From NCBI GenBank assembly GCA_964527285.1, contig CAZGNQ010000105.1:1-10836 (forward strand): a stretch of DNA of 10,836 nucleotides. The letters run 5' to 3'. Below are positions 300-10,836 of the stretch, piece after piece. Source of the stretch: an uncultured Hyphomicrobiales bacterium. GTDB lineage: Bacteria > Pseudomonadota > Alphaproteobacteria > Rhizobiales > CAZGNQ01. Numbering within the stretch: the first letter of the stretch is position 1; every line of letters begins with the position of its first letter. The position numbers were made by a program, and so were the translations under genes. The notes beneath the pieces are model-generated. The model ran no database searches and had not been told where the DNA came from. It worked only from the letters and a program-made list of their open reading frames with translations.

Positions 300-1583
300 A
301 TGGTGGCTGAAACAACGCGCCGATTTGACCGGCTCGAGGCCCAAGCGGCCCAGATTGTCGACGGTTTCAGGCGGGCCGGCTTTGAATTCGTCGCGCCGGC
401 GATCATTCAGCCCGCGGACGCCTTCCTCGACACGATCGGTGAATCCCTGCGCAACAGGACCTACGTTTTCACAGACCCTGCTGGGCACGAACTGTGCCTG
501 CGGCCGGACGTGACCGTGCCCGCAGCACGGCTCTATCGCGAGCGTCATCCCAAGACCGACCCGCGCCGGAAGTACTGCTACAATGGGCCAGTGTTCCGCT
601 ATCAGGAATGGGCGCGCCTCAGTGCACCATCGGCGATGGATGCCGGCGGCCCTGCGGCGGTCGGGCCGGATGTGGGCTCCGGCTCACCAGGCGATGCGAC
701 GGCAGACACATCGCTTGAGGTGCAGCCGCGCGAGTTCCGCCAGGCGGGCATTGAGGCTTTTGGCGACACCGATCGCGAGCGTGCCGATGCTGAAGTGTTT
801 GCGCTGACGATCTCGGCGTTGCGCGATGCCGGGCTGAAGGCGTTCACCCTGACGCTTGGCGATCTTGGCTTGTTGTTCGCGGTGATCGATGCGCTCGATA
901 TCCCCGAGCGCTGGCGCTTGCGCCTGCGGGCGGCCTGCAGCAATCCGGAGCGCTTCCAGGGTGAACTGGATGCCTTGCGCAATCCGGCGCGGTCACTGGC
1001 AAAGAGCGCACAACCTGAAGGGCTGGGGGCATTAATCTCCGCCCTGTCTCCAAGTCGGCCGCAGGAGGCCGCCGCACGTGTGGAGGACTTCATCCGCGAG
1101 GCCGGAATGACGTTCTTCGGGAACCGCACGCTGGCGGAGGTGACCGAGAGCCTGCTTGAGGCAGCGGCCGACCTGCACGAGAAGCCACTGGCGCCGGAGG
1201 CTGCGCAACTGATCCAGTCATATATGAGCATCCGCGCGTCACCGCGCGCTGCCGGTGCACGCATTGCCGACCTCGCTTCCACCTCCGGTGTCGACATCGC
1301 CGCCGCGCTGGATGCCTACAACCGGCGCATCGATCTGCTGGCACAGGCGGGCATCTCGTGGGATTCGTGTGTGTTCGCGGCGCCCTATGGACGTGACCTC
1401 GCCTATTACACCGGCTTTGTCTTCCAAGTGGAGGTGCCGGAATATGGACGGGGCGGGCACCTCGCCGGCGGCGGGCGCTATGACCAGTTGCTGAACGCGG
1501 CTGGCGGCCACGGGCATGTGCCGGCCGTCGGTGCCGCGATCCACACGGAGCGTTTGCTGCGTGCTGTCGAGGAGGGCGCCTGA
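300..1583 (+). CDS. hisZ: ATP phosphoribosyltransferase regulatory subunit HisZ (HisRS paralog lacking the anticodon-binding domain), 427 aa, with a ~37-aa low-complexity insertion
   Basis: HisRS-like class II core motifs (FRYQEW...REFRQAGIEAFG, GGGRYDQL). It is immediately followed by, and overlaps, a short-form hisG via a TGATG junction at 1581-1585, the classic hisZ-hisG arrangement. The start is ATG 300 with a weak SD (GGGA). Confidence 0.85.
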   Translation: MVAETTRRFDRLEAQAAQIVDGFRRAGFEFVAPAIIQPADAFLDTIGESLRNRTYVFTDPAGHELCLRPDVTVPAARLYRERHPKTDPRRKYCYNGPVFRYQEWARLSAPSAMDAGGPAAVGPDVGSGSPGDATADTSLEVQPREFRQAGIEAFGDTDRERADAEVFALTISALRDAGLKAFTLTLGDLGLLFAVIDALDIPERWRLRLRAACSNPERFQGELDALRNPARSLAKSAQPEGLGALISALSPSRPQEAAARVEDFIREAGMTFFGNRTLAEVTESLLEAAADLHEKPLAPEAAQLIQSYMSIRASPRAAGARIADLASTSGVDIAAALDAYNRRIDLLAQAGISWDSCVFAAPYGRDLAYYTGFVFQVEVPEYGRGGHLAGGGRYDQLLNAAGGHGHVPAVGAAIHTERLLRAVEEGA

Positions 1584-2302
1584 TGGCCGAGCAGTTGACG
1601 ATTGCGGTCCCCTCAAAGGGCCGGCTCATGGACGACACACTGGCCGTGTTCCGCAAAGTGGGTCTGGAAATCACTCGGACCGGGTCGGACCGCGGCTATT
1701 TTGGAACCATCGAGGCGCTGCCCGGCGTCGAAGTTCAGTTTTCCTCAGCATCTGAAATTGCCCGGCATCTGCACCAGGGTCGAGTCCACTATGGCGTGAC
1801 CGGAGCCGATCTGATCGGAGAGAATGTGCCCGATGCGCCGCGCACGGTGGCCTTTGTTACGCCGCTTGGCTTTGGCCATGCCGATGTGATCGTGGCGGTG
1901 CCGGACTGGTGGATCGACGTGCGCCGGTTGGAGCAGCTTGAACGGGCCGCTCTGGCGTTTTTGCGCATCCACGGCCGGCGCGTGCGCGTGGCGACGAAGT
2001 ATCTGAACACCGCGCGGCGCTTCTTCGCCCGCAAGGGCGTTGCGACCTACCGACTGGTTGAAAGCCTTGGCGCCACGGAGGCAACGCCGGCAGCGGGCTC
2101 TGCGGAGATCATCGTGGACATCACGTCCACCGGCTCCACGCTGCGTGCCAACGGCCTGCGGGTACTGGACGATGGGGTCATATTGCGCAGCGAGGCCAAT
2201 CTGATCGAATCGCAGACCGCCGACTGGTCACCCAATGTGAACGCGGCCCGCGCGCTCCTGAAGGAGCGGTTCGCGACGCTGGCGGAGGTGGCTGCGGGCT
2301 GA
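1583..2302 (+). CDS. hisG: ATP phosphoribosyltransferase, short form (HisG-S), 239 aa
   Basis: N-terminus LTIAVPSKGRL and motif DITSTGSTLRANGL are typical of HisG. Its length is short-form, which requires HisZ, and the start ATG overlaps the hisZ stop (TGATG). Confidence 0.9.
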   Translation: MAEQLTIAVPSKGRLMDDTLAVFRKVGLEITRTGSDRGYFGTIEALPGVEVQFSSASEIARHLHQGRVHYGVTGADLIGENVPDAPRTVAFVTPLGFGHADVIVAVPDWWIDVRRLEQLERAALAFLRIHGRRVRVATKYLNTARRFFARKGVATYRLVESLGATEATPAAGSAEIIVDITSTGSTLRANGLRVLDDGVILRSEANLIESQTADWSPNVNAARALLKERFATLAEVAAG

Positions 2303-2467: not shown

Positions 2468-3223
2468 TTGACCGAGGCTTGCAACACTCTTGCCCGCCTG
2501 CCCTTCACCGCATGGGCACCGGCCATGCCGGCTCAGCGACCATATCCGCGTGCCGACCTTCCAGCACTGCGGACCCTGCCGCAACGGTTGCCTGCGCGCA
2601 CCGCCACTGCGCCGGGTCAGATCACGCGTGTGAACGTGGAGACCCTCAAGCCGACACAGATGACGGTCGGCATGCGGTCTGTCGTGCGCAAGCGGATGAA
2701 ATTCGAAAGTCGGGCCTCGTCGCGCAAACGGATGGAGAAGACGCTGGCCGCTCGGCCAATTCCGGCCGTGCAGGGCCCCGCCAATGAGCTGTTCCTCATC
2801 GACAATCACCACTTCGGCCTCGCGCTTTGGCAGGCGCAGGTGAAAGAGGCCTACGTGCGGATCGTCGACGACAAATCGCACCTCGCGCCGCATGAATTCT
2901 GGCGAGCGATGGAAGCGGAGGGCTGTCTGCATCCCTTTGACGAGCACGGCGCGCGCATTCCGCCAGAGCTTCTCCCGTTTTGCCTGCAGGCCATGCGTCA
3001 CGACCCCTACCGGGATCTGGCCTGGGAAGTGCGTGAGGCGGGGGGGTATCGTAAGATGCCGATCCCCTATGCCGAGTTCCGCTGGGCTGGCTATTTCCGG
3101 CGTCATCTGCCCCTGGCACGCGTGCTGAAAGATCACCAAGGGGCCGTTCAGTCAGCCCTGGCATTGTGTCACCGCCCTGAAGCCCGCCACCTGCCCGGCT
3201 ACGTGAACGCGCCGGCTGCATGA
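2468..3223 (+). CDS. ParB-like nuclease domain protein (ParBc_2 / PF08857-like, 'putative ParB-like nuclease'), ~251 aa from TTG 2468; function unknown
   Basis: It carries the L(K/R)PTQ-MTVGM motif, followed by ...IDNHHFGLAL..., AEF(R)WA...FRR and a C-terminal HLPGY, which I recall as characteristic of the ParBc_2 family. The start is TTG with GGGAG 9 nt upstream, and ATG 2525 (in frame) is an alternative. The antisense ORF 2435-3139 lacks any signature and was rejected. Confidence 0.55.
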   Translation: MTEACNTLARLPFTAWAPAMPAQRPYPRADLPALRTLPQRLPARTATAPGQITRVNVETLKPTQMTVGMRSVVRKRMKFESRASSRKRMEKTLAARPIPAVQGPANELFLIDNHHFGLALWQAQVKEAYVRIVDDKSHLAPHEFWRAMEAEGCLHPFDEHGARIPPELLPFCLQAMRHDPYRDLAWEVREAGGYRKMPIPYAEFRWAGYFRRHLPLARVLKDHQGAVQSALALCHRPEARHLPGYVNAPAA

Positions 3224-3457: not shown

Positions 3458-4549
3458 ATGTCAGTATCCACACTCACAGATCGGCCGTCGTCACCTGGTC
3501 AGGGAACACCTGAGCAGCCCTCATCGCGCGCCATCACGCCGACGCTGGACACGCCGCCAGCGGGCTTCCTGTCGACGAGCCGCGTGCTTGAGGCGTTTCG
3601 CGCCGCGGGCGAAGACACCCGATTTCGGATCCTGATGCTGCTGCGTGAAGGCGAGCTGACCATCACGGACCTGTGCCGCATCCTTGGCCAGAGCCAGCCG
3701 CGGGTCAGCCGCCACATCAAGGTGCTGATCGATGCCGGGCTTGTGGAGCGCCAGCGCGAAGGCAACTGGGTTTTCCTGCACCTCGCCGCCAGCCCCGGTG
3801 TGATCGATGCTGTGCGGCCGGGCATGGACGCGGTCTCGCCCGTTGAGCCGCATCGCACGGCCGACCTGGAAGCCTTGGCGGACCTGCGCAATGAGCGTCA
3901 GGAGCGTGCCCAGGCGGTCTTCCGGTCACTTGCGGCGGACTGGAGCCGCGAGCGTGCACTCCATGTCGATGAGAGCCGGATCGAGGCGACGATCTGCCAA
4001 CTCGTGGGCCGTGCACCGATCCGCAGGCTGGTTGATCTGGGCACCGGCACCGCGCGCATTCTTGAACTGCTGGGGGATCGCGCCGCTTCCGGTCTCGGCA
4101 TCGATGCCAATGCCGACATGCTGAATTATGCGCGCTCTCGGTTGGCGCTCACCGGTGCGCGCCACCTTCGGGTGGCACGGGGGGATCTTTATCATCTGAG
4201 CGCGCACCGGGAGACAGCCGATCTGGTTGTCATGCACCAGGTGCTGCATTTTCTCTCCCATCCCGGGCCGGCCATTCGCAGTGCTGCGACTCTGCTTCGC
4301 CCCGGCGGGCGGCTGCTGATCGCGGATTTTGCTCCCCATACCCATGAGGTTTTGCGGGAGACGAACGGGCATGTGCGGCTGGGGTTTTCCGATGAGCAGA
4401 TGCTGCGCTGGTTCGCGGAGTTCGGGCTTGAACCGCTGGAGCGCAGGACGCTGGCGCCGGACGGTGCAGAGCCCGACAAGATACTGACGGTTGCCGTTTG
4501 GCTCGCAAAGCGTCCCGACGCGCCCGTTTCGACGCCTGAACCACATTGA
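3458..4549 (+). CDS. sahR: ArsR-family winged-HTH regulator fused to a SAM-dependent methyltransferase-fold domain (SahR-type SAH-responsive regulator of the methionine/SAM cycle), 363 aa, with a ~40-aa Pro/Ser/Thr-rich N-terminal extension
   Basis: It has an ArsR-type HTH (RFRILMLLREGELTITDLCRILGQSQPRVSRHIKVLIDAGLV) and methyltransferase motif I (VDLGTGTARILELL) in the C-terminal half. It lies directly upstream of metF, the arrangement conserved for SahR in alphaproteobacteria. A strong RBS (AAGGA-N8-ATG) is present. Confidence 0.75.
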   Translation: MSVSTLTDRPSSPGQGTPEQPSSRAITPTLDTPPAGFLSTSRVLEAFRAAGEDTRFRILMLLREGELTITDLCRILGQSQPRVSRHIKVLIDAGLVERQREGNWVFLHLAASPGVIDAVRPGMDAVSPVEPHRTADLEALADLRNERQERAQAVFRSLAADWSRERALHVDESRIEATICQLVGRAPIRRLVDLGTGTARILELLGDRAASGLGIDANADMLNYARSRLALTGARHLRVARGDLYHLSAHRETADLVVMHQVLHFLSHPGPAIRSAATLLRPGGRLLIADFAPHTHEVLRETNGHVRLGFSDEQMLRWFAEFGLEPLERRTLAPDGAEPDKILTVAVWLAKRPDAPVSTPEPH

Positions 4550-4601: not shown

Positions 4602-5606
4602 ATGAGCACGACCTATGATCGGCACGCCGGTGGCGAAGGGAGCGAAAACAAGGTGGCACGCACGAAGGCCGGCCGCCCTGCATTCTCGCTTGAGGTTTTC
4701 CCGCCGCGCTCGGTCGATGCTGAGCGGCAACTGAGCGAGACGCTCGCCAGCCTCATGCCGCTCGGGCCGCTCTTTGTCTCAGTCACATACGGTGCCGGCG
4801 GCGCCGATCGTGAACGCTCAACCGCCACGATCGCGCGGATCAAGCGCATGGCCGGCGTCGTACCGGCCGCGCATCTCACGTGCGCAGGCCAGTCGCGCCA
4901 GCAGGTGCTGCGGGCGCTGCAGGTGTTCGCGAGCCAGGGTGTCCGACACATTGTTGCGCTGCGCGGTGATGCGCCGGCCAATGGCGATGCTGTGAGTGGT
5001 GGCGATGAATCCGCCGACGTCAGCGCGGTGCAGGATTTCAACTCCGCGCTGGATCTGGTGCGCGTTGTCAAGGCTGCCGGCACATTCGAGATCTCCGTCG
5101 CGGCCTATCCCGAGCCCCACCCCAAGAGCGAAAGTGCGGAGGCGTGCCTTGATGCTCTCGTGGCAAAGTTCGATGCCGGTGCTGACCGGGCGATCACGCA
5201 ATTCTTTTTCAACAGCGCCGATTTTCTCCGTCTGCGCGACGCGCTTGCCGCGCGCGGCATCGACAAGCCGCTTGTGCCGGGGATCCTGCCGATACATGAC
5301 ATCGGTCAGGTGCGCCGTTTTGCGCGCCGTTGCGGTGCCCGCGTGCCGTCATGGCTGAGCGAGAGTTTCGACCGCCTGAAGGACGATGCCGATATGGCCC
5401 GGCTCTTTGCGCTGTCGTTCACGGTCGATCAGGTCGACGAGCTTGCCCGCGAAGGCGTCGACCACGTCCATCTCTACACGCTCAACCGGCACGAGCTGGT
5501 CCGCCCGATCCTGGAGCTGTCGGCCCGTGGTCTGGAAGGCCGTGACCTGCGCAATGACAAGGTCGCAGGCGATGTGCTGGCCTTGCGTGAGCGCGCGGCC
5601 GGCTGA
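4602..5606 (+). CDS. metF: 5,10-methylenetetrahydrofolate reductase MetF, 334 aa
   Basis: It shows MetF family features (FSLEVFPPRS near the N-terminus, a TIM-barrel FAD-binding pattern, AAYPEPHP). A GAGGAG SD lies 7 nt before ATG 4602. It is likely co-transcribed with the upstream regulator across a 52-nt gap. Confidence 0.9.
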   Translation: MSTTYDRHAGGEGSENKVARTKAGRPAFSLEVFPPRSVDAERQLSETLASLMPLGPLFVSVTYGAGGADRERSTATIARIKRMAGVVPAAHLTCAGQSRQQVLRALQVFASQGVRHIVALRGDAPANGDAVSGGDESADVSAVQDFNSALDLVRVVKAAGTFEISVAAYPEPHPKSESAEACLDALVAKFDAGADRAITQFFFNSADFLRLRDALAARGIDKPLVPGILPIHDIGQVRRFARRCGARVPSWLSESFDRLKDDADMARLFALSFTVDQVDELAREGVDHVHLYTLNRHELVRPILELSARGLEGRDLRNDKVAGDVLALRERAAG

Positions 5607-5776: not shown

Positions 5777-6973
5777 TCAACGCCGTGGCCCATTGCTACC
5801 GCCTGCGCCAGAGTTTCCGCCCCCATCATCGTCCCCCAGGCGATAAAGCCCACGCATCAGTGCCTGCAACGCCCCGCTCGTGCCATCGCCAGCGTGGAGA
5901 TCAATGTTGCCAACCTTCTCCACCAGCTTCTCAAGCGCTTCAAGTTCCTTGAGCCGAAGCAGCAGCGGATTATCCTCCATCAGCTTGGACGTGTTGAGCA
6001 GCGACCGCGTCGCCGCCGTCTCCTCCTGGCGCCGGATGAGATTGGCTTTGGCCGTGCGCTCAGCCTCGACAACCTTGTTCAGCAACTCCCGCACGTCGCC
6101 CGGCAGGATGATGTCCTTCACGCCGATCTCACCGATTGACGCACCAAGGTCTTCGGCACGAGCGCTCACATAATCGCGCACCTGCTGATCGAGCGTATCG
6201 CGTGCGGCCAAGATCTCATCCAGCGTACGGGCGGCCACCGCCTCCCTGATCGCAAACTGAATGAGCCGGTAGAGCGTCGTCGGCACGTCCTGGCTGGCGA
6301 TTGCGGCTTGCCTCACATCCTCGATCTTGAAGAACGCCGTCAGCGTCACGCGGATGCCCACGCGGTCCTTCGTGAGGATCTCCTGCGCTGTCACCTCCAG
6401 CGGGATCGGGCGCATATCCATTTTCTGGATGCGCACCGTGCGTCCCACCGCCCAGTAGGCATGATGACCAGCGGGCAGGATTTCAGCCAATGCGCCATCA
6501 ACGAACAGAAGGCCCGCCTCGTGGGCCTCAACGACACTGTGCACCACCGTATGCGACGATGAGAGATCAAGCCGGGCGAGGTGTTCCGGCGCCACCACCA
6601 TGGTTTCGCGGGTGTTGATCCGTTCGACGCTCACATCGGCCAGCGTTGTCCAGAACGCGCGAATGGCGTTGGGGGGAACGAAATGACGAGCCTGGCCGTC
6701 GATCGACACCAGCGCCACGGTTTCAGAGTCGGTCTGAACGATTTCCAGATGGTCGCGTGCAACATCGGGTTGCGTGCGCGCCAACAGCAGCGCCGTGTCG
6801 GCCGGCAGCGTCGAGCGCATCACGTTGAACACTTCGCAGGTGTACTCCCGGCGTGGATCGAAACGCACAAACCGGCCTGGAGCAAGAAACTGGGCAAAGC
6901 GCCCATCGCGGCGCAGTACGCCACGTTCGTCATCCCTGATGGTGACGCGAAAGAATCCAAGACGGTGCATCAT
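5777..6973 (-). CDS. SPFH/band-7 (stomatin/prohibitin/flotillin-like, slipin-type) domain protein, ~398 aa, with an N-terminal partial duplication of the SPFH beta-segment, a Gly-rich C-terminal tail and no obvious TM helix
   Basis: The SPFH core is AGLLFVDG...YWAVGRTVRIQKMDMRPIPLEVTAQEILTKDRVGIRVTLTAFFKIEDV, followed by a coiled-coil-like region (LIRRQEETAATRSLLNTSKLMEDNPLLLRLKELEALEKL). The preferred start is the ATGATG at 6973/6970, preceded by GGGAGGGG. The ORF-track GTG at 7009 has no SD. Confidence 0.75.
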   Translation of the reverse strand: MMHRLGFFRVTIRDDERGVLRRDGRFAQFLAPGRFVRFDPRREYTCEVFNVMRSTLPADTALLLARTQPDVARDHLEIVQTDSETVALVSIDGQARHFVPPNAIRAFWTTLADVSVERINTRETMVVAPEHLARLDLSSSHTVVHSVVEAHEAGLLFVDGALAEILPAGHHAYWAVGRTVRIQKMDMRPIPLEVTAQEILTKDRVGIRVTLTAFFKIEDVRQAAIASQDVPTTLYRLIQFAIREAVAARTLDEILAARDTLDQQVRDYVSARAEDLGASIGEIGVKDIILPGDVRELLNKVVEAERTAKANLIRRQEETAATRSLLNTSKLMEDNPLLLRLKELEALEKLVEKVGNIDLHAGDGTSGALQALMRGLYRLGDDDGGGNSGAGGSNGPRR

Positions 6974-7426
6974 CCCCTCCCGATCGGCCGTCGGCCGTCG
7001 TTGCGGCACGCGAACAAACTAAGCCACAAGCCTTGCCGCTTGATTGCCGGGCGCCCTGCGAGCGGTGCATCAGTGGAACATTGAGACGCGACGGCGGTGG
7101 CGCGCTGGGCTCGTTGGTGGTTGCCGGGGCGTGGCCGATGGTTTGCCGGATCGCTTCCCCCGCCGTCGAACGGGACGGCGCTTGAGCCCGGGGCGCGGCG
7201 GACCTGCACCGGGGTGCGCCTGCCCCAGGGGACCGCCCGAAAGCGCCCGCCCGAGGGCATCGGTGCCCGGGTTCACTCTGCCCGCCACAGGCGGTATCCG
7301 CACCGGCGCAGGGCCCGGCAGCGGGTGGCGCAACCGGCAAGGCCGAAGCCAAACCCGTCACCCCTGGAAACGATCCGGCGCCCCTTCGTCCGGAAAGCGC
7401 TTTTCAGGCGCGGCACGATCTCAAAT

Positions 7427-7498
7427 CGTGTGAGGTTGGAATCGAACCAACAACAGACACCTTAACAGGGTGTTGCTCTACCTTTGAGCTACTCCAAG
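7427..7498 (-). pseudogene. tRNA-Asn(GUU)-like sequence with an intact D-arm, anticodon arm (ACACC-CTGTTAA-GGTGT) and T-arm (GTTGG-TTCGATT-CCAAC), but a non-pairing acceptor stem (5' CTTGGAG vs 3' CTCACAC); probable tRNA pseudogene or tRNA-derived remnant
   Basis: I folded it by hand on the minus strand: D-arm TA-GCTC-AAAGGTA-GAGC and anticodon GTT. Only 4 of 7 acceptor pairs are possible. Its 5' end abuts the neighbouring tRNA-like gene with a 1-nt gap. Confidence 0.45.
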
Positions 7499-7499
7499 G

Positions 7500-7572
7500 A
7501 GGGCCGAGCAGGTATCGAACCTGCGACCTCCCGCCCAAAAGGGCGGGCGCTCTGCCACTGAGCTATCGGTCC
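7500..7572 (-). tRNA. tRNA-like gene with a canonical D-arm (TAGCTCAGTGGCAGAGC), T-arm (GCAGG-TTCGATA-CCTGC) and a 7-bp acceptor with one A3:C70 mismatch, but an 18-nt anticodon arm (CCCGC-CCTTTTGG-GCGGG; alternatively a 7-bp stem CCCGCCC/GGGCGGG closed by TTTT); identity unassignable; no encoded CCA
   Basis: I folded it by hand on the minus strand. Every element fits a tRNA except the anticodon arm, which is 1 nt longer than canonical (an 8-nt loop or a 4-nt loop). The T-arm and variable loop (AGGTC) resemble Lys/Pro/Ala-type tRNAs. Confidence 0.5.
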
Positions 7573-7769
7573 ATGCGCGCAAACGCGGAACACCAGGACG
7601 GCATGGCCGCCGGCGCCAGGCGGGTCTCAGCGAGCCCGTCCCCATGGCAATCTACACGCAGGCGTCGAGTGTAAGGGCCAGGGGTGAATGCAGCGTGAAA
7701 TCCGCCAGAGGATGCGCCGTTCCCGGCGGGAGCGCGTTGCGCGTCGAGGCGCAATGCGGAAAGGCAGGC

Positions 7770-8939
7770 ATGGAGAGCGAAGCGGAACAAGAGCCGGTTG
7801 CCGACGCACTGGACATTTTTCTCGCCGCGCTACCAGGCCTGGAGGACGTTCTGGCCGCGGAGGCGCGCGCGCTCGGCTTCGATGACGTGTCACCAACCGC
7901 GGGCGGTGTCACGCTGCGAGGCGACTGGGCTGGCGTGTGGCGGGCCAATCTCAGCCTGCGCTGTGCGACGCGGGTGCTCGTGCGGGTGGGCCGCTTCCGT
8001 GTTGTACACCTGGCCCAACTTGACAAGCGGGCGCGGGCGCTCCCGTGGTCTTTTTTCCTCCGTTCGGACGTGCCGGTTCGCGTCGATGCAACGACCCGGC
8101 GCTCACGCATCTACCATGCAGGCGCTGCGACGGAGCGTGTGGCCACGGCGATCACGGCAAGCGTCGGCTGCGAGATCCGGCCTGCTGCGCCGGTGAAGAT
8201 CCTGGTGCGCGTGGAGGATAACATCTGCACCGTCAGCGTTGACACATCCGGCGAGCTTTTGTTCCGCCGCGGCTTCAAGCAGGCGGTCGGCAAGGCGCCC
8301 TTGCGTGAGACCATGGCCGCAGCCTTCCTGCGCGCCTGCGCCCACACGGACGCAGAACCCGTGGTCGATCCCATGTGCGGCTCTGGCACGATTGTCATCG
8401 AGGCAGCGGAAATGGCGGCAGGGCTGTTGCCGGGCCGCGCGCGCGGGTTCGCGTTTGAGCACCTTGCAGGATTTGAGCATCAGGCCTGGGAGAGCCTGCG
8501 TCACGCGGAGGATGAAAAATCGCGAGCGACCGCACACGGTGGGGACCCAATCGCTTTCGGTTCCGACCGTGATGCTGGGGCCGTCGCCATGGCCTTTGCG
8601 AACGCTGAGCGGGCGGGCGTGACGGCACTGACAGACTTTGCCCACCTGCCCGTCAAGGATCTGACGCCACCATCATTGCCCAACGGGTCGACCGATGGCG
8701 GCCTTGTGCTCGTCAACCCGCCTTACGGGGCACGCATTGGCGAAGTCAGCGCGCTGTCCGGGCTCTATCACACTCTTGGCAAGGTGATGCTTGAACGTTT
8801 CGCCGGCTGGCGGGTCGGCCTCATCACCAGTGAGCCGCGTCTGGCGCGTGCCACCCGGTTGCCCTTCGGCCCGCCCGGCCCGCCCGTGCCCCACGGCCCC
8901 CTGCGCGTCCGCCTCTATCAGACGGAGCGACTGGGGTGA
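7770..8939 (+). CDS. THUMP-domain class I SAM-dependent RNA methyltransferase (COG0116, RlmL/m2G-type N-methyltransferase), ~389 aa
   Basis: Motif I is VDPMCGSGTIVIEAA and motif IV is the NPPYG tetrad (LVLVNPPYGARIG). An N-terminal THUMP-like region is present. The start ATG 7770 is preferred over the ORF-track 7644 because GAAAGG lies 7 nt upstream and the protein length matches the family. Confidence 0.75.
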   Translation: MESEAEQEPVADALDIFLAALPGLEDVLAAEARALGFDDVSPTAGGVTLRGDWAGVWRANLSLRCATRVLVRVGRFRVVHLAQLDKRARALPWSFFLRSDVPVRVDATTRRSRIYHAGAATERVATAITASVGCEIRPAAPVKILVRVEDNICTVSVDTSGELLFRRGFKQAVGKAPLRETMAAAFLRACAHTDAEPVVDPMCGSGTIVIEAAEMAAGLLPGRARGFAFEHLAGFEHQAWESLRHAEDEKSRATAHGGDPIAFGSDRDAGAVAMAFANAERAGVTALTDFAHLPVKDLTPPSLPNGSTDGGLVLVNPPYGARIGEVSALSGLYHTLGKVMLERFAGWRVGLITSEPRLARATRLPFGPPGPPVPHGPLRVRLYQTERLG

Positions 8940-8954
8940 AAAAGTGTGCGGCCC

Positions 8955-8964
8955 GGATGCATCC
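8955..8964. promoter_or_regulatory. Perfect 10-bp palindrome GGATGCATCC in the 86-bp region upstream of the DUF2703-like/ECF operon, with CGTC 15 nt downstream (8980-8983); candidate operator or ECF-type promoter element
   Basis: Seen directly in the sequence. A strong AGGAGG SD lies at 9014-9019. Confidence 0.25.
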
Positions 8965-9025
8965 TTTCGCCCACCGCGACGTCAAGGGTGAGGCAAGCAG
9001 GCAGGAAGGACCAGGAGGGACCGCC

Positions 9026-9766
9026 GTGAACACACCGACCGCAAAGACGCCAACGACGAGCGTCAACATCGCCAATGCAGGCCAACACCAACCGGAGGCC
9101 GGGATCGGCACCGCCACACGGGCGGTGGACGCAGCGGACAACAGGGCGGTGTTGGAAATTGATTATCTTTATCTCGACCTTGCTCAATGCACGCGGTGCC
9201 AACGCACGCGCGAGGTCTTGCACCGCGCCGTTGAGGCTTGCCGCCCTGCGCTCGACGCCCTCGGATTGTCCGCCGTGGTGCGCGAGACACACGTGACGTC
9301 GCGGGAGATGGCGCAGGCTCATGCGTTCCGTGTGTCGCCGACGATCCTGATCGACGGGCGCGATGTGCAACCTGAAGCGTCTCACGATCTTTGCGCGGAA
9401 TGCGGGGATCTGTGCCAGTGCGCCGATGGGGTGGAGTGCCGTGTCTGGGTCTGGAACGGCGAGCGTCAACTCTGGCCGCACGCTGCGTTCTTGATCGACG
9501 CCATCGTCACCGCGGCGACGCGGCACCGCGCAGGGGGCAACGGTGATGATCAGGATACGTTGCCGCGTGCCACTGGAACCGGCCGGGAGGTCGTGGAGAA
9601 AAACCCTGGCGGCCCGGCCTTGCCTGCCGCGCCGGCTGAGCGGTACTTTCCCGCATCGTGCGCTCCAGGCGATGGGCCAGCACAGGGCGACGCCCGCGAC
9701 AACGCAACGCGCAGCGGACATGGCAGCGAAGCGAACGCCTGCTGCCCGCCGTCGTGCTGCCCATGA
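9026..9766 (+). CDS. DUF2703-like thioredoxin-fold protein with Cys clusters (CxRC, CAECGDLCQC, VECRVW) plus a disordered Pro/Gly-rich tail ending ACCPPSCCP; ~246 aa; putative metal-binding protein
   Basis: The core LEIDYLYLDLAQCTRCQRT...SPTILIDGRDV...CAECGDLCQCADGVECRVWVWNG matches my recollection of the DUF2703 (PF10865) pattern. GTG 9026 is preceded by AGGAGG-N6, which is far better than the GTG 8936 or ATG 8957 starts. The stop overlaps the next gene's ATG (ATGA at 9763-9766). Confidence 0.6.
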   Translation: MNTPTAKTPTTSVNIANAGQHQPEAGIGTATRAVDAADNRAVLEIDYLYLDLAQCTRCQRTREVLHRAVEACRPALDALGLSAVVRETHVTSREMAQAHAFRVSPTILIDGRDVQPEASHDLCAECGDLCQCADGVECRVWVWNGERQLWPHAAFLIDAIVTAATRHRAGGNGDDQDTLPRATGTGREVVEKNPGGPALPAAPAERYFPASCAPGDGPAQGDARDNATRSGHGSEANACCPPSCCP

Positions 9767-10383
9767 GGCGGGGGCCTGACGATCCATGTCCGCAGGGACG
9801 TGATGACGTGCCCATCACACCGGCGCGGTGGGGCGTTGCTGTGCTGCGCGCGCGCCGGGCCATCATGGCGAGCGGCGTGGCGCCGGCTGACGTTGATGAC
9901 GTCTTGCACGCTGGCGTTGAAAAAGCGCTGCGCGCGCTGCCTGGCTTGCGCGACCACACGCGCTTTGAAGCCTGGGTGGCGCGCATCGCAACGCGGTGTG
10001 CCATCGATCATCTGCGTGCAGCCGGCCGCGCGCAGGCCCGTCTCAGCGATCATGATGTCGAAGCCCTCGCGCACGAGGACAGTCTCACCGAGCGTTCCGA
10101 CGCATCTGGCCTGACGTCCTACAGCCCGTGCGTGGCGCCCTTCCTGGCACGCCTCGCGGCGCCAGACGCTGAGGTCCTGCGCTTGAAGGACGTTGAAGGG
10201 CGGCCGTCCGTTCAGGTGGCGGCACTGCTGGGCATCTCACTGCCGGCCGCAAAGTCGCGCATTCTGCGGGCGCGGCGTCGGCTTGCGCGGGCGCTTGTGG
10301 CCTGCTGCGGTGAGCTGGCAGAGCGTCCCATCGCCTCGCGCGCGGTTGAAGACTGTGGGCCGCGTTGCTGCCTCAACGATTGA
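9763..10383 (+). CDS. ECF (group IV) RNA polymerase sigma factor with a Cys-rich C-terminal extension (..ACCGELAERPIASRAVEDCGPRCCLND), ~206 aa; CorE-like (ECF44-type) metal-sensing candidate
   Basis: Sigma-2 region: DVLHAGVEKALRALPGLRDHTRFEAWVARIATRCAIDHLR. Sigma-4 region: VLRLKDVEGRPSVQVAALLGISLPAAKSRILRARRRLARAL. There are 5 Cys in the last 30 aa. The start ATG 9763 overlaps the upstream stop (ATGA). No anti-sigma gene follows; a convergent gene does. Confidence 0.85.
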   Translation: MRRGPDDPCPQGRDDVPITPARWGVAVLRARRAIMASGVAPADVDDVLHAGVEKALRALPGLRDHTRFEAWVARIATRCAIDHLRAAGRAQARLSDHDVEALAHEDSLTERSDASGLTSYSPCVAPFLARLAAPDAEVLRLKDVEGRPSVQVAALLGISLPAAKSRILRARRRLARALVACCGELAERPIASRAVEDCGPRCCLND

Positions 10384-10836
10384 GAACGCGGCCCGCCACA
10401 GCGTCGAGCTTGGCCACCAGGTCTGGATCCCGCGCATCGGGGCCCGTGATGATCGCATACTCAAGCGCGCGGTCTGAGCCGTTGGGACAAGCCTCATGCA
10501 GGGAGGGGAAATCCCCTGCCAGCCGCGCCACAAGCCGGCGGGCCTTGTCCGCATTGTCTGTCATCACCTTGATGATGGCGGTGATGTCGACATCCTGGTG
10601 GTCGTCGTGCCAGCAGTCATAGTCGGTGACCATGGCGACCGTGGCGTAACAAATCTCCGCCTCGCGGGCGAGTTTGGCCTCGGGCATGTTCGTCATGCCG
10701 ATCACCGCGCAGTCCCACGAGCGGTAGAGATTGCTTTCGGCACGGGTGGAGAATTGCGGTCCCTCCATGGCCAGGTAGGTGCCGCCGACCACATGGTCGA
10801 TGTCCTCCGCCTTGGCCGCGTCGCTCACGCGGGCCA
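10373..10836 (-). CDS. mtnP: S-methyl-5'-thioadenosine phosphorylase (MTAP / PNP family), C-terminal ~155 aa; the gene continues beyond the window end
   Basis: ...GTYLAMEGPQFSTRAESNLYRSWDCAVIGMTNMPEAKLAREAEICYATVAMVTDYDCWH... matches the MTAP core (compare human MTAP [31 protein letters not shown]). The M at 10828 is internal and the reading frame is open to the window edge. Its 3' end overlaps the sigma-factor stop by 11 bp. Confidence 0.85.
   Translation of the reverse strand, partial: ARVSDAAKAEDIDHVVGGTYLAMEGPQFSTRAESNLYRSWDCAVIGMTNMPEAKLAREAEICYATVAMVTDYDCWHDDHQDVDITAIIKVMTDNADKARRLVARLAGDFPSLHEACPNGSDRALEYAIITGPDARDPDLVAKLDAVAGRVLNR

Follow-up and report, generated by a model that had tools for sequence, protein, structure and literature searches.

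The stretch of DNA analysed here by computation (10,836 nucleotides from an uncultured Hyphomicrobiales bacterium; hereafter, the window) contains two overlapping genes, one for a Cys-rich DUF2703 protein and the other for an ECF sigma factor that ends with a Cys-rich extension. This raises the question of which signal the sigma factor detects, and of whether the DUF2703 protein is its regulatory partner or one of its targets. We lean towards a self-activated, anti-sigma-free sigma factor that would sense a thiol-binding metalloid, probably As(III), the thiol protein DUF2703 being the effector. The arsenic context of both gene families suggests a sigma-factor-based mode of arsenic sensing that has not been described so far, a link that is drawn from gene neighbourhood.

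As an earlier note on this DNA had supposed, the first gene encodes a DUF2703-type protein. In the frame of the open reading frame 8936-9766, the Pfam family PF10865 is matched from end to end (profile positions 1-120 of 120; E = 7.1e-23; 81.4 bits for a cut-off of 23.6). The GTG at 9026, already proposed as the start codon, is the best one and is preceded, 7 nt upstream, by an AGGAGG Shine-Dalgarno motif (Table 1); AGGAG is also found ahead of the start codon in six other DUF2703-sigma operons. The longer public gene call (276 aa from 8936) contains the predicted ECF-type promoter within its limits. With the 246-aa numbering, the cysteines are C55xxC58, C123xxC126xxxC130xC132, C138, C212 and C239-C240-PPS-C244-C245-P. 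Among 111 aligned DUF2703 members, C55, C58, C126 and C138 never vary, C123 and C130 are kept in at least 90%, and all the conserved family cysteines (CxxC; CxxCxxxC; C-R-V-W) are present in the window protein. The CCPPSCCP ending reported earlier is indeed there, but the tail can no longer be called unusual, a C-terminal CC..CC..CC..CGC tail being found in 68 of the 120 best relatives and an N-terminal CCSCGSGCCG in 39 of them. The tail of the window protein is far shorter than those of its relatives; that of the partner protein in locus L093 begins with CCPPAEQAVCC. If the start codon adjoining the Shine-Dalgarno motif is used, a lipoprotein export signal is predicted on the DUF2703 protein in five of the seven tail-type pairs.

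The DUF2703 domain has the beta-alpha-beta core of the thioredoxin fold, and helix 1 opens with its CxxC, the canonical position of a thioredoxin active site. Weak thioredoxin and glutaredoxin matches were the best ones in a PDB profile search, and NCBIfam ties DUF2703 to selenoprotein-containing 'DF family' proteins. DUF2703 resembles ArsD in its thioredoxin-type fold, its vicinal cysteine pairs and its place in ars operons beside transport genes. Its identification as ArsD was considered and rejected, with no match to PF06953 and the ArsD structure 3ktb_A appearing only at Foldseek rank 40 (E = 1.0).

Table 1. Features of the DUF2703-sigma pair and its flanks (window coordinates; residue numbers refer to the 246-aa and 206-aa proteins unless another reading frame is given)
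Feature	Position	Strand	Remarks
THUMP/RlmL-like methyltransferase	7644-8939		upstream flank of the pair
Predicted ECF-type operon promoter	8958-8985	+	-35 TGCATCCTTTC (8958-8968); -10 CGTCAA (8980-8985)
Shine-Dalgarno motif AGGAGG	9013-9018	+	read from sequence
DUF2703 protein gene	9026-9766	+	246 aa; disordered N-terminal 42 aa, thioredoxin-like core, disordered linker, C-terminal CC-PPS-CC-P
DUF2703 domain	9152-9505	+	aa 43-160 (Pfam limits)
CxxC, C55/C58	9188-9199	+	start of helix 1 of the DUF2703 domain
Second Cys cluster CxxCxxxCxC..C, C123-C138	9392-9439	+	inside the DUF2703 domain
Vicinal-cysteine tail CCPPSCCP	9740-9763	+	DUF2703 C-terminus; shortened version of the CC..CC..CC..CGC tail of the family
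ATGA overlap of DUF2703 stop and sigma start	9763-9766	+	TGA 9764-9766, ATG 9763-9765
ECF sigma factor gene	9763-10383	+	SigZ-like, in the sense of ECF238; 206 aa; Sigma70_r2 and Sigma70_r4_2
Sigma region 2	9883-10029	+	Pfam PF04542, aa 76-124 of the 241-aa ORF
Linker cysteine C123 (SPCVAPF)	10129-10131	+	between sigma2 and sigma4
Sigma region 4.2	10144-10284	+	Pfam PF08281, aa 163-209 of the 241-aa ORF
Cys-rich C-terminal extension CCGELAERPIASRAVEDCGPRCCLND	10303-10380	+	C181, C182, C198, C202, C203; candidate on-board sensor
mtnP (MTA phosphorylase)	10373-10828		convergent, downstream; shares 11 nt with the 3' end of the sigma gene

The second gene encodes, again in agreement with the earlier note, an ECF sigma factor with a Cys-rich C-terminus. 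Both sigma regions are recognised in Pfam (Sigma70_r2, E = 1.2e-8; Sigma70_r4_2, E = 2.2e-9), the TIGR02937 sigma70-ECF model gives 51.5 bits for a cut-off of 42.9, and regions 3 and 1.1 are absent. ATG 9763 is favoured over GTG 9808 or 9838 as the probable start codon, because the junction is tight in six other loci. The extension, C181-D206, carries five cysteines in 26 residues, with the pattern CC..DC..CC. SigZ is the best specific family, but the window sigma differs from SigZ in staying below the equivalog cut-offs (TIGR02959, 83.2 versus 168.65 bits; NF007215, 78.4 versus 212 bits). The extension aligns to the SigZ-like motif CC.FE.D..G..D...C.C, of which the window sigma lacks the FE.D..G core; it also has a 3-residue insertion. 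Among 82 unique relatives, the CC pair is kept in 98-99%, the further C-terminal Cys columns in 54-61%, and the linker column is a cysteine in 41%; a linker cysteine is present in every Phycisphaerae-type DUF2703-linked sigma (ELARCMEPML). The window sigma is divergent, with at most 38% identity to any relative. Its nearest relatives (36-38% identity) form a clade linked to arsM, arsH and arsC, with the same CC..DC..C.C pattern. In an AF2 model of low confidence, built from nine sequences (mean pLDDT 58), the extension is modelled as disordered.

Group ECF238 corresponds to the merged ECF24 and ECF44, and its SigZ-like part includes B. subtilis SigZ (subgroup 9); members have a minimal sigma2-sigma4 architecture followed by a short C-terminal extension that is rich in Cys and some 20-25 aa long, a linker cysteine is present in some of them, and an anti-sigma gene is absent (PMC7826278). 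The window sigma likewise has a short Cys-rich extension after sigma4, a linker cysteine and no neighbouring anti-sigma gene. Judged by this group description, by SigZ as the best match and by the C-terminal alignment, it is probably a member of the SigZ-like part of ECF238. In the literature consulted, we found these sigma factors connected neither with arsenic nor with a DUF2703 partner or a promoter motif.

The earlier note had likened the sigma to the CorE type. This likeness holds for the Cys-rich extension, whose 26 residues and five cysteines lie within the 21-50 residues of a CorE-like C-terminal Cys-rich domain, and for the missing anti-sigma. It does not extend to the CorE type proper, SigZ being the best match and the linker, TSYSPCVAPFL, having one cysteine only, whereas CorE-like (ECF44) sigmas have a strictly conserved CxC between sigma2 and sigma4 (PMC6851896, PMC4937300). 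Because this CxC motif is missing, the window sigma is, by its sequence, not a strict CorE-type (ECF44) factor. CorE and CorE2 of Myxococcus xanthus, which belong to ECF238, involve no anti-sigma and become active when their C-terminal Cys domain binds metal (PMC7826278, PMC6851896, PMC4937300). Single Cys changes switch the metal specificity of CorE2, and an adjacent lipoprotein gene affects its signalling without being an anti-sigma (PMC4937300). The window system probably shares with CorE and CorE2 the direct binding of a thiophilic ion to the C-terminal Cys-rich domain and the anti-sigma-free activation, and may also share the participation of a neighbouring (lipo)protein gene in the pathway. 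It differs from them in its gene context, which suggests arsenic and not Cu, Cd or Zn; moreover, CorE-like genes are reported to be only partly autoregulated, whereas here the promoter stands ahead of the whole operon.

How widely the two genes occur together was then considered. A word-index search gave few close homologues (three for DUF2703 and about seven SigZ-like ones for the sigma), so that both families were surveyed by pattern scans and a profile search, the sigma scan being seeded with a five-sequence alignment. In all seven loci examined in which DUF2703 has a C-terminal tail, the sigma gene is directly downstream (window, L005, L044, L169/L170, L171, L173 and L174). The stop and start codons overlap as ATGA in the window, as had been seen before, and also in L005; they are separated by 3 nt in L169, L171, L173 and L174. 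The reverse order, sigma then DUF2703, is found in four more loci (L010, L093, L095 and L131). The pair is shared by unrelated lineages (Tepidisphaeraceae, Phycisphaerae-type and Caloramator MAGs and metagenome contigs). Thus, DUF2703 and Cys-tailed ECF genes do co-occur, as the earlier note required, and nothing that it had named beforehand as refuting was encountered: DUF2703 similarity is present and the genes are found together in unrelated lineages. Its statement that the pairing had not been characterised agrees with the searchable literature, in which no description of a DUF2703-ECF pair was found. Pfam and NCBIfam also bear out that no transmembrane anti-sigma gene adjoins the pair, the neighbours being a THUMP methyltransferase gene upstream and a convergent mtnP downstream.

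The surroundings of both families are rich in arsenic genes. In 46 of the 73 unique loci of window-sigma relatives, ars or DUF2703 genes are present at a distance of at most 3 kb. Such proportions are rough, because the selection of the 80 sigma loci relied on a single peptide pattern together with similarity to the window sigma, and the metagenome contigs on which they lie are of uneven length. Of the 73 loci, arsM was counted in 34, arsH in 14, LMW-PTPase-type arsC in 12, an ArsP-family permease in 7, and arsD and grx-type arsC in 6 each. NCBIfam confirms such neighbours (ArsM, 328-383 bits for a cut-off of 263; ArsH, 385 versus 292; ArsC, 121 versus 106). Most sigmas of the clade have no DUF2703 gene nearby and adjoin arsM, arsH or arsP, while DUF2703 genes are, for the most part, located in ars operons that have ArsR and no sigma. 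Among the 144 immediate neighbours of DUF2703 in 80 genomes, about half are ars-type genes (SBF/Acr3 23, ArsR-type HTH 17, ArsA 15, ArsP_1 15). The gene order is arsD-arsA-arsC-acr3-DUF2703 in L006 and arsR-arsC/D-arsA-acr3-DUF2703-sigma in L174, the latter being the only one of the seven DUF2703-then-sigma loci to adjoin an ars operon. A Rhodococcus DUF2703 gene is induced by arsenate (PMC6514093). Using the same ArsR seed, ArsR-like ORFs were found in 57 of 80 DUF2703 genome loci versus 2-8 of the 80 sigma loci, a rarity near the sigmas that fits a sigma replacing ArsR. Those arsenic-responsive transcription factors that have been characterised in ars operons are, to our knowledge, repressors of the ArsR/SmtB type, and no paper tying an ECF or SigZ-like sigma to an arsenite methyltransferase or to ars genes was found in the searchable literature. 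Genes for Cu, Zn or Cd handling (P-type ATPases, CDF transporters, multicopper oxidases) are not among the frequent families in any of the neighbour surveys. The earlier proposal of Cu, Cd or Zn as the signal is therefore not retained, the gene context favouring arsenic.

The predicted promoter links the two genes further. It is located on the correct strand, 43 nt upstream of the DUF2703 start, in an 86-nt intergenic gap, with 15 nt from GCATCC to CGTC. GCRTCC-N15-CGTC has a single match in the window, on either strand, for a chance expectation of 0.23 (21.7 kb, both strands). A chance origin was rejected because of this low expectation and because the sole match falls in the 86-nt upstream gap. 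The window promoter deviates from those of other loci by an A for G in the -35 element: in L005, L044, L169, L171, L173 and L174, TGCGTCC-N15-CGTC(TC) is found 25-82 nt ahead of the DUF2703 coding sequence. More generally, TGCGTCC(TTTT)-N-CGTC stands before DUF2703 in 8 unique cases, before arsM in 8, before the sigma gene in 5 and before the gene of an ArsP-family permease in 1. In sigma-side metagenome loci, the motif occurs 30 times on the sigma strand versus 2 times on the opposite one, while shuffles give an expectation of 5.1 ± 2.0. Sister sigma loci have the same promoter ahead of arsM, of ArsP-family permeases or of a free 67-aa Cys-rich peptide (L166). In sigma-then-DUF2703 loci, it sits between both genes, so that DUF2703 can be considered a target. 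No sigma-70-type promoter was found in the region 8800-10836. As judged from these arrangements, DUF2703 behaves as one of several seemingly interchangeable effectors placed behind the common promoter of the sister sigmas.

A mechanism can be sketched from these data. We infer that the sigma would read the promoter ahead of the operon and thereby drive both its own gene and the preceding DUF2703 gene. It would be a one-component regulator without anti-sigma, its activity being set by its own cysteines on the precedent of CorE2. The sensing residues would be the invariant C181-C182 together with C198, C202-C203 and probably the linker C123. The most likely signal would be a metalloid that binds to thiols; As(III) or methyl-As(III) is the leading candidate, and Sb(III) or soft metals are possible ones. 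Binding on three thiolates (CC and one more Cys) may lock the extension and permit the binding of RNA polymerase or of the promoter. The DUF2703 effector would be a cytoplasmic thioredoxin-fold protein, with its CxxC site, second Cys cluster and vicinal-Cys tail, that may bind, buffer or reduce the metalloid or the adducts of the latter with thiols, a role presumably shared by its relatives in ars operons.

In AfArsR, the C-terminal arsenic site consists of Cys95-Cys96-Cys102. The proposed binding of As(III) on three thiolates, including a vicinal CC near the C-terminus, would be a feature common to the window sigma and ArsR/SmtB proteins, and the two also share neighbourhoods containing arsM, arsH, arsC, acr3 and arsP. 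They differ, however, in that the window protein is an activating subunit of RNA polymerase and not a winged-helix repressor that is released, and in the rarity of ArsR-like genes in sigma-containing clusters.

Alternatively, DUF2703 may be the direct regulatory partner of the sigma, either as a soluble thiol-based anti-sigma or as a metallochaperone (as in CopZ-CopY or ArsD-ArsA), the two proteins then forming the sensor. The adjacency is strict in the seven tail-type loci (ATGA or 3-nt gap), as is typical of sigma/anti-sigma pairs; such one-to-one coupling is equally expected of a sigma and its regulator and, as such, speaks against the effector reading. A bound metalloid could pass between the vicinal cysteines of the two proteins, the neighbourhood contains no further regulator gene, and the lipoprotein gene beside CorE2 affects signalling though it is no anti-sigma (PMC4937300). 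RsrA-type ZAS proteins also are small, soluble, Cys-rich and encoded beside an ECF sigma, and thiol-based control is possible in principle. It should, however, be noted that DUF2703 has a thioredoxin-like alpha/beta fold and not a helical anti-sigma domain, that HxxxCxxC (ZAS) is absent from it (D51, not His, stands four residues before C55) and that it matched no anti-sigma family in the Pfam scan. Many DUF2703 orthologues are predicted exported lipoproteins, and the signal peptide in five of the seven tail-type pairs implies that the protein would be outside the cytoplasm in those pairs. Added to this are the many clade sigmas without DUF2703, the many DUF2703 genes in sigma-free operons and the promoter position in reverse-order loci, which marks DUF2703 as a target. 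Hence, a direct partnership appears rather unlikely to us. The earlier note had DUF2703 as the only candidate partner, in the role of an anti-sigma, a chaperone or a relay; it may be a partner, but the effector reading is better supported because the sister sigmas and their promoter couple to arsM and arsP and because of the lipoprotein signals.

That the sigma senses Cu, Zn or Cd in the manner of CorE or CorE2, with DUF2703 as a metal-binding accessory and arsenic not being the signal here, seems quite unlikely. The sole characterised ECF238 members do respond to Cu or to Cd/Zn via their Cys-rich extension (PMC7826278, PMC6851896), specificity changes with single cysteines in CorE2 (PMC4937300) while the Cys spacing of the window sigma is divergent, and the ArsP_1-family permeases near some relatives have their highest scores with models for Cu/Zn efflux (SO_0444 family), albeit well below cut-off. 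On the other hand, the CxC linker motif, strictly conserved and essential in CorE-like sigmas, is absent, and frequent neighbours include ArsM, ArsH and ArsC above curated cut-offs and no Cu, Zn or Cd genes. The arsenic reading itself has points against it at the window: scans with Pfam and NCBIfam recognised no ars gene in its 10.8 kb, the sigma is divergent and lacks the motif core, and the -35 element has its A for G. We regard as very unlikely a thiol-redox switch, in which the sigma cysteines would be oxidised or alkylated and DUF2703 would be the thioredoxin-like reductase by which they are reset or damage is repaired. Cys-based redox control of a sigma is well established for RsrA-SigR, and the position of the CxxC and the selenoprotein-containing 'DF family', typical of redox-active sites, would agree with it. 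Yet it leaves unexplained why both families are embedded in clusters for arsenic methylation, efflux and reduction, and vicinal CC pairs and metallothionein-like tails would rather be expected in proteins that bind soft metals or metalloids. Finally, the divergence of the window sigma, its degenerate C-terminal motif and the much shortened DUF2703 tail could be taken as signs of a decaying gene or of a functionally meaningless adjacency. This is scarcely credible in view of the conservation of pair, junction and promoter across distant lineages, of two intact ORFs that keep all conserved core residues, and of a 99%-identical sigma in a second sample (P0005).

With the self-activated sigma and its DUF2703 effector as the preferred reading, a broader proposal can be made, which we hold with somewhat less than even confidence. 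ECF sigmas that sense As(III) or methyl-As(III) via a vicinal CC and further C-terminal cysteines may represent an unrecognised class of arsenic regulators, replacing ArsR in many arsM, arsH, arsC and arsP clusters and reading a promoter of their own, TGCGTCCTTTT-N11-CGTC. In one branch, including the window, the sigma would have become fixed with a Cys-tailed DUF2703 as a unit of two genes, DUF2703 being an arsenic-binding effector or a chaperone feeding the sensor. If this is true, the arsenic cycle gains a new regulatory principle, activation by a sensor built into a subunit of RNA polymerase, the large uncharacterised SigZ-like part of ECF238 gains a function, and DUF2703 is given a functional frame for the first time. 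Biosensors could also make use of an orthogonal pair of sigma and promoter that takes a small molecule as input. Since the sigma, the promoter and the five or six cysteines that are candidate ligands have all been defined, the idea lends itself to a direct test.

Elsewhere in the window, an ArsR-HTH/methyltransferase fusion (3458-4549) was considered as an arsenic link and rejected, as it scores 26 bits for an arsenite methyltransferase cut-off of 263 and adjoins metF. At 90% identity, all the window proteins that were compared are singletons. As would suit a proteobacterium, the window has 65% GC and contains, besides this ArsR-methyltransferase gene and metF, hisZ-hisG.

The DUF2703 gene and the ECF sigma gene of the window form a real pair. 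Their co-occurrence across genomes, which the earlier note proposed to test, is borne out by a neighbourhood survey, in which the order DUF2703 then sigma was found in 7/7 examined loci, window included, where the DUF2703 protein carries a C-terminal Cys tail (tail-type loci). A genome scan with a DUF2703 alignment gave 80 loci, mostly Firmicutes with an N-terminal Cys motif; with an HMM of SigZ-like sigmas, a sigma of this type was detected beside DUF2703 in two MAGs, L010 (Caloramator) and L044 (Tepidisphaeraceae), and in L005, the contig that carries the closest tail-bearing homologue and on which the public gene call overlooks the sigma. Four additional C-terminal-tail DUF2703 proteins on long contigs were looked up, and in each case an ECF sigma gene begins downstream after a gap of 3 nt; its product has 187-188 aa, carries the motif CC.I.RD..G.P.D...R.DRPCPCDGC and reads ELARCMEPML in the linker. 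The reverse order, with DUF2703 directly downstream of the sigma, occurs in 3/80 metagenome loci collected from the sigma side (L093, L095, L131). At 4728-5378 of L005, the public call is an antisense ORF without family match, and the SigZ-like sigma lies on the opposite strand (161 bits, HMM); SigZ-like sigma genes may be under-annotated in high-GC contigs.

Gene content of the window (complete public contig, 10.8 kb, ~65% G+C), drawn from ORF lists and family scans
Feature	Position	Strand	Basis
hisZ	300-1583	+	ORF list/family scan
hisG	1583-2302	+	ORF list/family scan
ParB-like nuclease	2468-3223	+	ORF list/family scan
ArsR-HTH/SAM-methyltransferase fusion	3458-4549	+	ORF list/family scan
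metF	4602-5606	+	ORF list/family scan
SPFH protein	5777-7009	-	ORF list/family scan
Two tRNA-like genes	7432-7572	-	family scan
THUMP/RlmL-like methyltransferase	7644-8939	+	ORF list/family scan
DUF2703 gene	9026-9766	+	Pfam DUF2703
ECF sigma gene	9763-10383	+	sigma regions 2 and 4.2
mtnP, convergent, truncated at contig end	10373-10828	-	ORF list/family scan

Each member falls in a known class, one being a DUF2703 protein with a thioredoxin fold and the other a probable ECF238-type sigma with a proposed on-board Cys sensor. For the first gene, the Pfam DUF2703 profile is matched along its full length (E=7.1e-23). The stop codon of this gene shares ATGA with the start of the second gene, as previously described. 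Its GTG start at 9026, with AGGAGG 7 nt upstream, is upheld over GTG 8936 of the public record (276 aa), which probably starts 30 codons too early, since the conserved promoter and the SD fall inside the extension 8936-9025. Modelled with AlphaFold from 111 family members, the protein has a confident core (pLDDT ~90-98 at residues 40-170) and is disordered in its first 40 residues and in most of the final 80. C55xxC58 occupies the position of the thioredoxin active site. Four cysteines (C55, C58, C126, C138) never vary within the family, and two more (C123, C130) almost never do. The earlier note called the disordered tail ending in CCPPSCCP unusual. A Cys tail is, however, a family trait: the C-terminal form CCDRTxCC..SEK..CCG....CGC is present in 68/120 best relatives, the N-terminal CCSCGSGCCG in 39/120 and both together in 8/120. 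CCPPSCCP is a shortened form of this family tail. From the SD-proximal start, a lipoprotein signal peptide (MRSLILPALLAL.GC) is read in 5/7 tail-type pairs (L005, L169, L171, L173, L174), and in about a third to a half of tail-type relatives, an indication that these thioredoxin-like, Cys-rich proteins are exported as lipoproteins.

Sigma regions 2 and 4.2 are both present in the second gene, which scores above the cut-off for the ECF superfamily. Its C-terminus, ACCGELAERPIASRAVEDCGPRCCLND, is Cys-rich as reported (Cys 181, 182, 198, 202 and 203), and its linker has a single Cys at position 123. The best specific NCBIfam model is SigZ, with a score under the equivalog cut-off. In the ECF reclassification, SigZ and CorE2 are grouped in ECF238, whose members are described as lacking an anti-sigma factor and carrying a Cys-rich extension of ~20 aa (PMC7826278). 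[quoted passage not shown] The suggested resemblance to CorE stands for the Cys-rich C-terminus; the window sigma probably works like CorE2, but it should not be classed as CorE-like. As also noted earlier, no membrane anti-sigma gene flanks the pair in the window. The motif CC(H)FE.D..G..(I)D(Y/C)...C.C is present in all closest relatives; conservation over 82 unique relatives is 98-99% for the CC pair, 54-61% for further C-terminal Cys columns and 41% for the linker Cys. The window sigma is divergent, with a degenerate C-terminal motif, and an AlphaFold-type model was uninformative. Its nearest relatives (36-38% identity) belong to an arsM/arsH/arsC-linked clade, with which it shares the CC..DC..C.C spacing.

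On the sigma side, 80 metagenome loci (73 unique) were retrieved with one peptide pattern and similarity to the window sigma. Among their 91 immediate neighbours, a 275-aa methyltransferase is the commonest (19/91), along with FMN reductase (6), ArsP_1 permease (3), DUF2703 (3) and ArsC (2). By NCBIfam, the methyltransferase is the arsenite methyltransferase ArsM (328-383 bits vs cut-off 263), the reductase is ArsH (385 vs 292) and the ArsC is of the glutaredoxin type (121 vs 106). At least one ars or DUF2703 gene lies within 3 kb in 46/73 unique loci, though contigs in this set are often short: arsM in 34, arsH in 14, LMW-PTPase-type arsC in 12, an ArsP-family permease in 7, arsD and grx-type arsC in 6 each, DUF2703 in 3 and acr3 in 2. 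Overlap of arsM with the sigma gene is frequent. With the same seed, ArsR-like ORFs were found in 2-8/80 sigma loci versus 57/80 DUF2703 genome loci. A recurrent soil cluster (e.g. L090, L104, L121) has the order arsD - arsC (LMW-PTPase type) - arsM - sigma - (arsC grx), with arsM overlapping the sigma gene, arsH convergent and no ArsR-like gene detected.

Among the 144 immediate neighbours of DUF2703 in the 80 genome loci are SBF/Acr3 (23), ArsR-type HTH (17), ArsA (15), ArsP_1 (15) and Thioredoxin_3 (6), as in the orders arsD-arsA-arsC-acr3-DUF2703 (locus L006) and arsR-arsC/D-arsA-acr3-DUF2703-sigma (locus L174). A Rhodococcus DUF2703 gene beside arsO is arsenate-induced (PMC6514093), the sole experimental note found. 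The window has no other ars genes, and an ars operon stands beside the DUF2703-then-sigma unit in only 1/7 loci.

All seven operons of this order share TGCGTCC - 15 nt - CGTC(TC) upstream, then AGGAG and the start codon. The window version, TGCATCCTTTCGCCCACCGCGACGTCAA at 8958-8985, lies 43 nt before GTG 9026 and has a degenerate -35 element; GCRTCC-N15-CGTC has a single match in the window, both strands considered (0.23 expected by chance), and a search of 8800-10836 detected no promoter of sigma-70 type. The sigma-side loci contain the motif, usually as GCGTCCTTTT-N11-CGTC, 30 times on the sigma strand and 2 times on the opposite one, against 5.1+-2.0 from shuffles for both strands combined. 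Taking all loci together, the gene that the motif immediately precedes is DUF2703 in 8 unique cases, arsM in 8, the sigma gene in 5 and an ArsP-family permease gene in 1; in the other 12, the motif stands at a contig end or in front of a gene without family assignment. Such genes include one for a further ArsP-like permease and one for a free-standing Cys-rich peptide of 67 aa. This is the pattern that the cognate promoter of this sigma clade would show, and we infer that the sigma reads it. The peptide, at 3560-3763 (+) of comparison locus L166 (..GCCGG..ACCV..GCGCG..SSCC), directly follows the motif and has a SigZ-like sigma upstream; it resembles a DUF2703 tail that stands alone and is possibly metallothionein-like. 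The conserved unit, the motif, the arsenic context of the SigZ-like clade and the rarity of ArsR in its ars clusters appear undescribed in the searchable literature; ECF238 supplementary descriptions may note part of this.

Most likely, the window operon would be transcribed from the 8958-8985 promoter by its own sigma, giving positive autoregulation, and this sigma would act without an anti-sigma factor under the control of its own cysteines, as shown for CorE2. Arsenite sites made of three thiolates are known from ArsR proteins. The ligand is likely As(III) or a related thiophilic metalloid, because both families have an arsenic gene context, ArsR is rare in sigma-containing ars clusters, and the vicinal CC pair with a third Cys fits such sites. 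The evidence throughout the analysis is computational.

For DUF2703, the best reading is that of a regulated effector, a thiol protein which would bind, buffer or reduce the metalloid. Three points favour this: sister sigmas appear to use such a promoter for arsM, arsP or a Cys-rich peptide, most DUF2703 genes sit in ArsR-type ars operons without a sigma, and the lipoprotein signal in 5/7 tail-type pairs would place the protein outside the cytoplasm. The same three points weigh against the role of metallochaperone or soluble anti-sigma offered in the earlier note. Because the window protein has no signal peptide, a direct partnership with the sigma, as chaperone or thiol-based anti-sigma, is still a candidate role in this organism, though an unlikely one.

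Elsewhere in the window, the 3' ends of the sigma gene and mtnP overlap by 11 nt (10373-10383), with no terminator-like hairpin between them; the nearest predicted hairpins are within mtnP. The ArsR-HTH/methyltransferase fusion, directly 5' of metF, is probably a methionine- or SAM-related regulator; an arsenite methyltransferase was ruled out (26 bits vs cut-off 263). At 7498-7572 (-), a tRNA gene (Rfam, 53.9 bits) has an abnormal anticodon arm, CCCGCC-CUUUUG-GGCGGG, with a 6-nt loop, or an 8-nt loop on a 5-bp stem, and is UUU (Lys)-like; ARAGORN labels it 'tRNA-???' with an anticodon of two bases. Directly after it, a tRNA-Asn(GUU)-like piece (7432-7494, -), not called by ARAGORN, covers model positions 5-66 only, with an unpaired acceptor stem and 48% G+C versus 67% in the neighbouring tRNA; it may be a tRNA remnant, e.g. 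of an old integration site.
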